A stretch of 63,828 nucleotides of DNA, filler included, from Rozella allomycis CSF55 (lineage: Eukaryota), in NCBI GenBank assembly GCA_000442015.1. It is 9 parts of 9 records of this genome, joined end to end, with 100 filler letters (N's around TTAATTAATTAA, not from the genome) between each part and the next. Parts side by side here need not be neighbours in the genome. Positions count along the whole stretch, not along the records: positions 35,158 to 58,417 come from KE561313.1; 8 more parts are not named here. One strand, 5' to 3'. Shown here in pieces: positions 45,104-46,533 of this stretch. The translations under genes and the position numbers were made by a program. Numbering within the stretch: the first letter of the stretch is position 1; the number at the start of each line of letters is the position of its first letter. The notes under the pieces are model-generated. The model did no database searches and was not told the DNA's origin. It saw nothing but the letters and a program-made list of their open reading frames with translations.

Positions 45104-46533
<1,430 letters not shown>

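Follow-up and report, generated by a model that had tools for sequence, protein, structure and literature searches.

An intron-like element with GT and TG ends in the TTLL1 gene of Rozella allomycis, and a corrected model of the gene

Rozella allomycis is a zoospore-forming parasite of the water mould Allomyces. The stretch of its DNA analysed here (63,828 nucleotides, filler included; hereafter the window) was mapped by Pfam searches of 361 stop-to-stop ORFs of at least 50 residues. Around the gene of interest, this placed eEF3, RhoGEF, an LSM protein, WDR5, an MCM subunit, Chibby, Cwc15, a gamma-tubulin complex protein (GCP), topoisomerase I, a Tup1-like WD40 protein, Snf7, a protein kinase, RAI1, a ThiF/E2-binding protein, dynactin 5 and a degenerate copia-type retrotransposon. 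The window comes from the nuclear genome of R. allomycis, since the translated large exon (45740-46171) matches at 100% identity the public protein P0001, whose record reads 'tubulin tyrosine ligase-like family, member 1 [Rozella allomycis CSF55]'. This exon belongs to the TTL family (Pfam PF03133, E = 1e-43) and the best named matches, at 56-65% identity, come from the TTLL1 proteins of chytrids and animals, so that the gene call made in an earlier note on this DNA, TTLL1, was correct.

Two features of the surrounding sequence deserve mention in their own right. The retrotransposon, of Ty1/copia type, occupies 10035-15636 (plus strand) with a chromo domain at its end, and its Pol beta-barrel, pre-integrase, integrase core and reverse transcriptase domains are each matched twice in succession; part of this duplication may be an assembly artefact. 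Single Ns at 21075, 22399, 23355 and 26441 create false frame breaks in large minus-strand ORFs. These breaks were considered as introns and rejected: each is a single N, and the near-duplicate sequence beside three of them suggests assembly joins. The Ns at 21075, 22399 and 26441 are flanked by near-identical repeats that look like two haplotypes assembled head to tail, with no duplication evident at 23355.

The TTLL1 gene and the features discussed below are listed in Table 1. Removal of all eight introns, a 27-base element with unusual ends included, leaves one open frame of 401 residues. Intron 1 must be a GC-AG intron, because no other cut joins exon 1 in frame to the exon that encodes DWHFYW; it is also the sole GC donor among the 41 introns that we curated in this window. 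The N-terminal 76 residues of the spliced product are 55-68% identical to four orthologues, and the remainder of the protein is 58-67% identical.

Table 1. Positions in the window of the TTLL1 gene, its introns and the signals in and around the 27-base element.
Feature	Position	Strand	Basis
TTLL1 gene, 9 exons and 8 introns, 401 residues	45104..46533	+	PF03133 on exon translations; collinear with chytrid orthologues
TTLL1 start and stop codons	ATG 45104; TGA 46531-46533	+	Single terminal stop in the spliced model
Intron 1, 28 nt, GC-AG (GCAAGT...TTAG)	45198..45225	+	tblastn, intron table, spliced model
Intron 2, 30 nt, GT-AG	45245..45274	+	tblastn, spliced model
Intron-like element, 27 nt, GT...TG, 5' GTACAC, 3' TTAACTG	45341..45367	+	Sequence, orthologue gap, intron anatomy
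TTAAC, branch-point-like motif, second A (45364) 3 nt before the element end	45361..45365	+	Motif comparison
In-frame TGA, last two element bases and first base of the next exon	45366..45368	+	Frame-1 translation
Nearest downstream AG; splicing to it would make the intron 58 nt long, shift the frame and remove the NHFP motif	45397..45398	+	AG list, arithmetic
ATG used as start by P0001	45417..45419	+	MVKNIKRY encoded from 45417; 50 nt past the element
Intron 4, 27 nt, GT-AG, multiple of three with in-frame TGA	45502..45528	+	P0001 comparison, spliced model
Intron 5, 32 nt, GT-AG	45707..45738	+	P0001 comparison, spliced model
Intron 6, 27 nt, GT-AG	46174..46200	+	P0001 comparison, tblastn
Intron 7, 27 nt, GT-AG	46354..46380	+	P0001 comparison, spliced model
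Intron 8, 26 nt, GT-AG (model of this analysis)	46441..46466	+	Keeps the segment that tblastn aligns to P0018

The public protein differs from this model at both ends. P0001 has 322 residues, begins MVKNIKRY, and is without about 80 N-terminal residues, the conserved NHFP motif among them, a truncation that arises from one GC-AG intron and one putative GT-TG intron. The missing portion is part of the conserved fold, since a chytrid TTLL1 orthologue aligns to the solved TTLL6 core (6vzq) from its residue 27 on. The last intron of P0001 was placed at 46425-46459, as against the position in Table 1, and deletes a conserved C-terminal segment with a tblastn alignment to P0018, a chytrid orthologue. 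Because of this lost segment we take P0001 to be an ab initio model and not an RNA-guided one, and it therefore carries no weight on the question of splicing. The public TTLL1 model is wrong whether or not the 27-base element is spliced, being both truncated and misplaced in its last intron, and the corrected gene model is the firm result of this work. Gene sets built on strict GT-AG rules for the R. allomycis genome probably hold further truncations of this sort.

The element reads GTACACATTACTTTCTTTCATTAACTG, with T at base 45366 and G at base 45367, and re-reading the window returned the same sequence and coordinates as the earlier note. Left unspliced, the upstream frame does meet a TGA where that note had claimed one, and cutting out exactly 27 bases yields the peptide that it had described as restored. 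The cut is not unique at the protein level: removal of 45342-45368 (TA...GA) gives identical residues, CAG and CAA being synonymous codons for Q, and the GT...TG cut is preferred only because it retains a normal donor. Between 45330 and 45420, AG dinucleotides occur solely at 45340-41, 45397-98 and 45410-11, hence nowhere inside the element; the first consists of the last exon base and the first intron base, and the second lies past the codons for NHFPNNY, in agreement with the claim that no AG occurs until after the NHFP motif. An ORF chaining program found no GT-AG or GC-AG intron of 22-40 nt that bridges 45365/45369.

In regards to the orthologues, tblastn with three chytrid TTLL1 proteins placed a nine-residue gap exactly over the element in all three, and a ten-residue gap over the preceding GT-AG intron. 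In a MAFFT alignment of 25 orthologues from fungi and animals, the nine inserted columns are empty in 24; the sole protein with residues there, P0013, comes from a fused model whose sequence at this point is unrelated. The 27 bases are thus an insertion relative to the orthologues, and since their removal is both needed and sufficient for collinearity these comparisons support the reading of the element as an intron.

The same comparisons bear on whether the element could instead be translated, with its TGA read through or recoded, to give a protein with a nine-residue insertion. Such a reading would suit a length that is a multiple of three and the presence of a single stop, the terminal TGA. 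However, the three standard stops are in use in this DNA, where the standard code leaves many frames open, one of them 1015 codons long, TTLL1 itself terminates in TGA, 24 of the 25 orthologues are without residues at the site, and the insertion would fall in the conserved core. TGA recoding was rejected on account of the long ORFs that stay open under the standard code, and we regard translation of the element as scarcely credible.

The next point is whether the T at 45366 is real, given that an A at this base would make the element an ordinary GT-AG intron. Six sequencing runs from three studies carry the stretch. The contigs of runs X1 (depth 383) and X2 (depth 286), which may be the source of the assembly, show no difference from the window across the site. 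A contig from run X5, of another study (depth 49), spans 45137-45766 with 10 differences and represents a different haplotype. Eight of the 10 are listed (45215, 45327, 45431, 45493, 45512, 45515, 45693 and 45705), none of them within 45341-45367, and the other two presumably sit in the 30-nt overlap with the next contig; the identity of X5 with the window inside the element is thus deduced from the eight listed positions out of 10. X1 and X2 also have minor contigs with the X5 variants at 46207-46324, and therefore X5 represents a second haplotype of the same culture. Assembly artefacts elsewhere in the window, where near-duplicate segments are joined by single Ns, and the tendency of contigs to drop rare variants could be taken to favour an error at 45366, but contigs from three runs of three studies agree on T at the depths given, one of them on a different haplotype. 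The T, which the earlier note had proposed to check, is real, and a sequencing or assembly error is a very improbable account of the TG end.

The element was compared with the other 40 of 41 introns curated by hand, from the continuity of Pfam profiles and three-frame views, in six conserved genes (TTLL1 8, WDR5 5, MCM 6, GCP 6, topoisomerase I 8 and Tup1-like 8), a stretch of about 105 nt in GCP being excluded. The curated introns measure 24-32 nt, with 26 nt in 10, 27 nt in 10, 28 nt in eight and 30 nt in seven. Their termini are GT-AG in 39 cases, GC-AG in one and GT-TG in one, the TTLL1 element. Donors are mostly GTAA (33), followed by GTAT (four), GTAC (two), GTAG (one) and GCAA (one), and the last three bases are TAG (23), AAG (nine), CAG (six), GAG (two) and CTG (one). 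Since 18 of the 41 lengths are multiples of three, introns of this kind are not depleted in the curated set.

Against this background the element, at 27 nt, has one of the two commonest lengths. It starts with GT, as a U2-type intron does, in the hexamer GTACAC at 45341, and the other GTAC donor belongs to a bona fide intron at 50161-50134. Its AT content of 0.70 lies inside the intron range of 0.62-0.89 (large TTLL1 exon, 0.62), and its removal restores a conserved open reading frame, as expected of a U2-type intron. Many of the curated introns contain a T[AG]A[CT] motif whose A is 3-7 nt away from the 3' end, and in five introns besides the element the spacing after the motif A is 3 nt, as it is here; TTAAC may accordingly be regarded as a putative branch site, a role suggested by its form and position. 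In length, GTA start, AT content and TTAAC near the 3' end, the 27 bases look like a Rozella intron. What the element lacks is the AG end of a U2-type intron, and by its sequence features it resembles a typical Rozella intron save for the second-last base. AG ends all 40 of the other curated introns, so the recurrence implied in the earlier note by the words 'cleanest non-AG case' is not supported here: this is the only non-AG case among 41 introns in six genes, and non-AG acceptors are no general habit of R. allomycis within this six-gene sample.

Other introns of the window showed features of separate interest. Two MCM introns on the minus strand end in CTAACTAG (36492-36499) and TTAACTAG (36221-36228), a yeast-like branch motif abutting the acceptor, and show how close branch site and 3' splice site lie in R. 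allomycis. Two 27-nt GT-AG introns on the minus strand, at 34863-34837 and 36518-36492, are multiples of three and free of stops, so that their retention would add nine residues. In the GCP gene, the stretch of about 105 nt at approximately 44487-44383 (minus strand) is not explained by one intron of 24-32 nt and could be a long intron, or two introns that flank a micro-exon.

The uniform AG ends count against a working UG acceptor, and so does the donor, GTAC being off-consensus (two of 41) next to GTAA (33 of 41). Both observations would suit a splice-dead lesion, in which the acceptor was disabled by a recent change from AG to TG, or by the loss of 1 nt from ...TTAACTAG; retention of the intron, or its mis-splicing to the AG at 45398, would follow, no full-length TTLL1 would be made, and this strain would carry the gene as a young pseudogene or strong hypomorph. 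In the same direction point the human AG>TG mutants, which in the cited portion of PMC2374985 were not spliced at the TG, and the fact that the public annotators were unable to model the N-terminus. In the window allele, however, all exons are without stop or frameshift, and the N-terminal region is as conserved as the remainder of the protein, which shows that it is not decaying and supports the intron reading.

The two haplotypes allow this possibility to be weighed further. When the 30 listed X5 differences were placed on the 401-residue model, four were intronic and 26 coding, and of the latter 16 were synonymous and 10 non-synonymous (pS 0.070, pN 0.011, pN/pS 0.15; binomial P = 3e-6 against the neutral share). 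The ratio indicates that TTLL1 was under purifying selection while the haplotypes diverged. The nearest allele-specific differences flank the element at 45327 (14 nt upstream) and 45431 (64 nt downstream), and the TG acceptor appears to be present on both haplotypes, the X5 state following from the listed differences. Purifying selection with TG on both haplotypes favours a spliced element, and a null acceptor that predated the split of the haplotypes would have left a ratio near 1, so that the observed pattern is unexpected under a lesion of that age. The lesion would need to be very recent and to have been copied between haplotypes by a conversion tract of less than 104 nt; the other escape route is selection on a truncated product. 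The window allele, to which this statement is limited, does not look like a decaying pseudogene, having one terminal stop and the pN/pS ratio given above. In the X5 allele, the TTLL1 coding sequence shows two indels, a deletion of 1 nt at 46076 and an insertion of 1 nt at 46395, and if real these would break the frame across the catalytic region, so that the gene may be starting to decay; they count against the UG-acceptor reading to that extent, and fit a gene that is losing constraint. On balance we consider a splice-dead acceptor possible but rather unlikely.

A truncated product could arise if translation began at the ATG at 45417, the 322-residue protein being the one under selection and the upstream exons, with the element, an untranslated leader. 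P0001 begins at this very ATG, and the selection signal comes mostly from downstream of it, only one of the 26 coding differences lying upstream of 45417. It is nonetheless hard to reconcile an untranslated leader with 76 upstream codons that are open once three intron-like elements are removed, that match orthologues to the degree reported above and that encode a region alignable to the solved TTLL6 core. The most conserved TTLL motif is encoded by the 16 codons that separate the TGA from the ATG at 45417, and since no ATG lies between the two, the NHFP motif can be translated only from upstream. P0001 also loses the conserved C-terminal segment at its last intron. Selection on a truncated protein is thus an improbable explanation.

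Searches for transcripts and for close relatives gave little. None of the six runs that carry the stretch is an RNA run, and the RNA run X8 yielded only scraps of 17-41 nt on neighbouring genes (47363-49341) and none on TTLL1. A query spanning exon 3 and exon 4 against transcript-derived fragments returned 16 proteins, none above 76% identity and none from Rozella. A metagenome scan for a close rozellid TTLL1 found 34 loci, the best at 62% over an uninterrupted match and none of them a close rozellid TTLL1.

Taken together, we favour the view that the element is a true intron, still removed although its acceptor is a degenerate UG, and give this view about an even chance. The element would be a U2-type spliceosomal intron of the R. 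allomycis TTLL1 gene, of the usual tiny size, whose acceptor changed from AG to UG, most simply by an A to T substitution at the second-last base of an ancestral ...TTAACAG. It would probably still be removed, fully or at reduced efficiency, exactly at CA|A, and the product would be a full-length tubulin polyglutamylase of 401 residues. We infer the splicing itself and the manner in which UG would be chosen. With a branch-like A no more than 3-7 nt before the 3' end of Rozella introns, just one or two positions could reach the catalytic centre in the second step, and the terminal G of the element would keep its ability to pair with the intron's first G. That the acceptor is chosen mainly by its distance from such a branch A, with UG as the sole constitutive acceptor of an intron in an essential domain, is a narrower claim that we put forward only tentatively and think doubtful as it stands.

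Either outcome would be of interest. If spliced, the element would provide a natural UG acceptor that acts alone in an ultra-short intron, with no AG in reach, and a convenient substrate for the study of site choice in the second catalytic step where the branch point is nearly adjacent. If unspliced, it would indicate that a flagellar tubulin polyglutamylase gene was inactivated very recently in this zoospore-forming parasite.

Introns of the U12 type have the donor consensus RTATCCTT and a branch site, TCCTTAAC, located about 10-15 nt from the 3' end. The element resembles them in its TTAAC near the 3' end and its non-AG terminus, as U12 introns tolerate unusual terminal dinucleotides, but differs from that consensus in its donor, GTACACAT, and in a branch-like A only 3 nt from the end, and a U12-type identity was rejected on these two grounds. 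Rozella is not mentioned in a pan-eukaryotic survey of minor introns (PMC10639083).

The element is also close to the ordinary introns of the same genome. R. allomycis introns have been described, in the portion of Whelan et al. 2019 (PMC6349667) cited here, as about 30 nt long and without conserved motifs. The element shares with those of our curated set its 27 nt, GTA start, AT-richness and a TRAY motif near the 3' end, and like intron 4 of TTLL1 its length is a multiple of three with an in-frame stop; unlike them it ends in CTG and not in YAG or AAG.

GT-TG introns are a recognised rare class, to which the TTLL1 element would add one more case. According to Table 3 of PMC4528330, release 6.04 of FlyBase holds 23 GT-TG introns in Drosophila melanogaster, 19 with RNA-seq support, and 22 of the 23 have a similar alternative splice. 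In the basidiomycete Ganoderma lingzhi, Table 1 of PMC11590231 gives 22 GT-TG introns in the curated annotation out of about 92,000 (0.024%). These introns share their termini with the Rozella element; as presented in those sources, their sizes fall outside 24-32 nt and their support is RNA-seq.

In humans, 36 genes with TG acceptors in U2-type introns were reported by Szafranski et al. 2007 (PMC2374985), and in the cited portion of that study all of these acceptors are alternative to an AG within 28 nt, none is the sole acceptor, and disease mutations from AG to TG activated other AGs, which is an unfavourable precedent for the UG reading. The Rozella element agrees with the human sites, as far as the same portion describes them, in its GT donor, its TG acceptor, a pyrimidine at -3 (C) and a purine at +1 (A), the last two being the context preference reported there. 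Unlike the human sites, it has no internal AG and does not form a TG-AG tandem, the next AG being 31 nt away and out of frame. With no AG nearby, TG would be the only productive acceptor in Rozella, and a UG used as the sole constitutive acceptor would contradict the rule, derived from human genes, that TG serves only beside a nearby AG.
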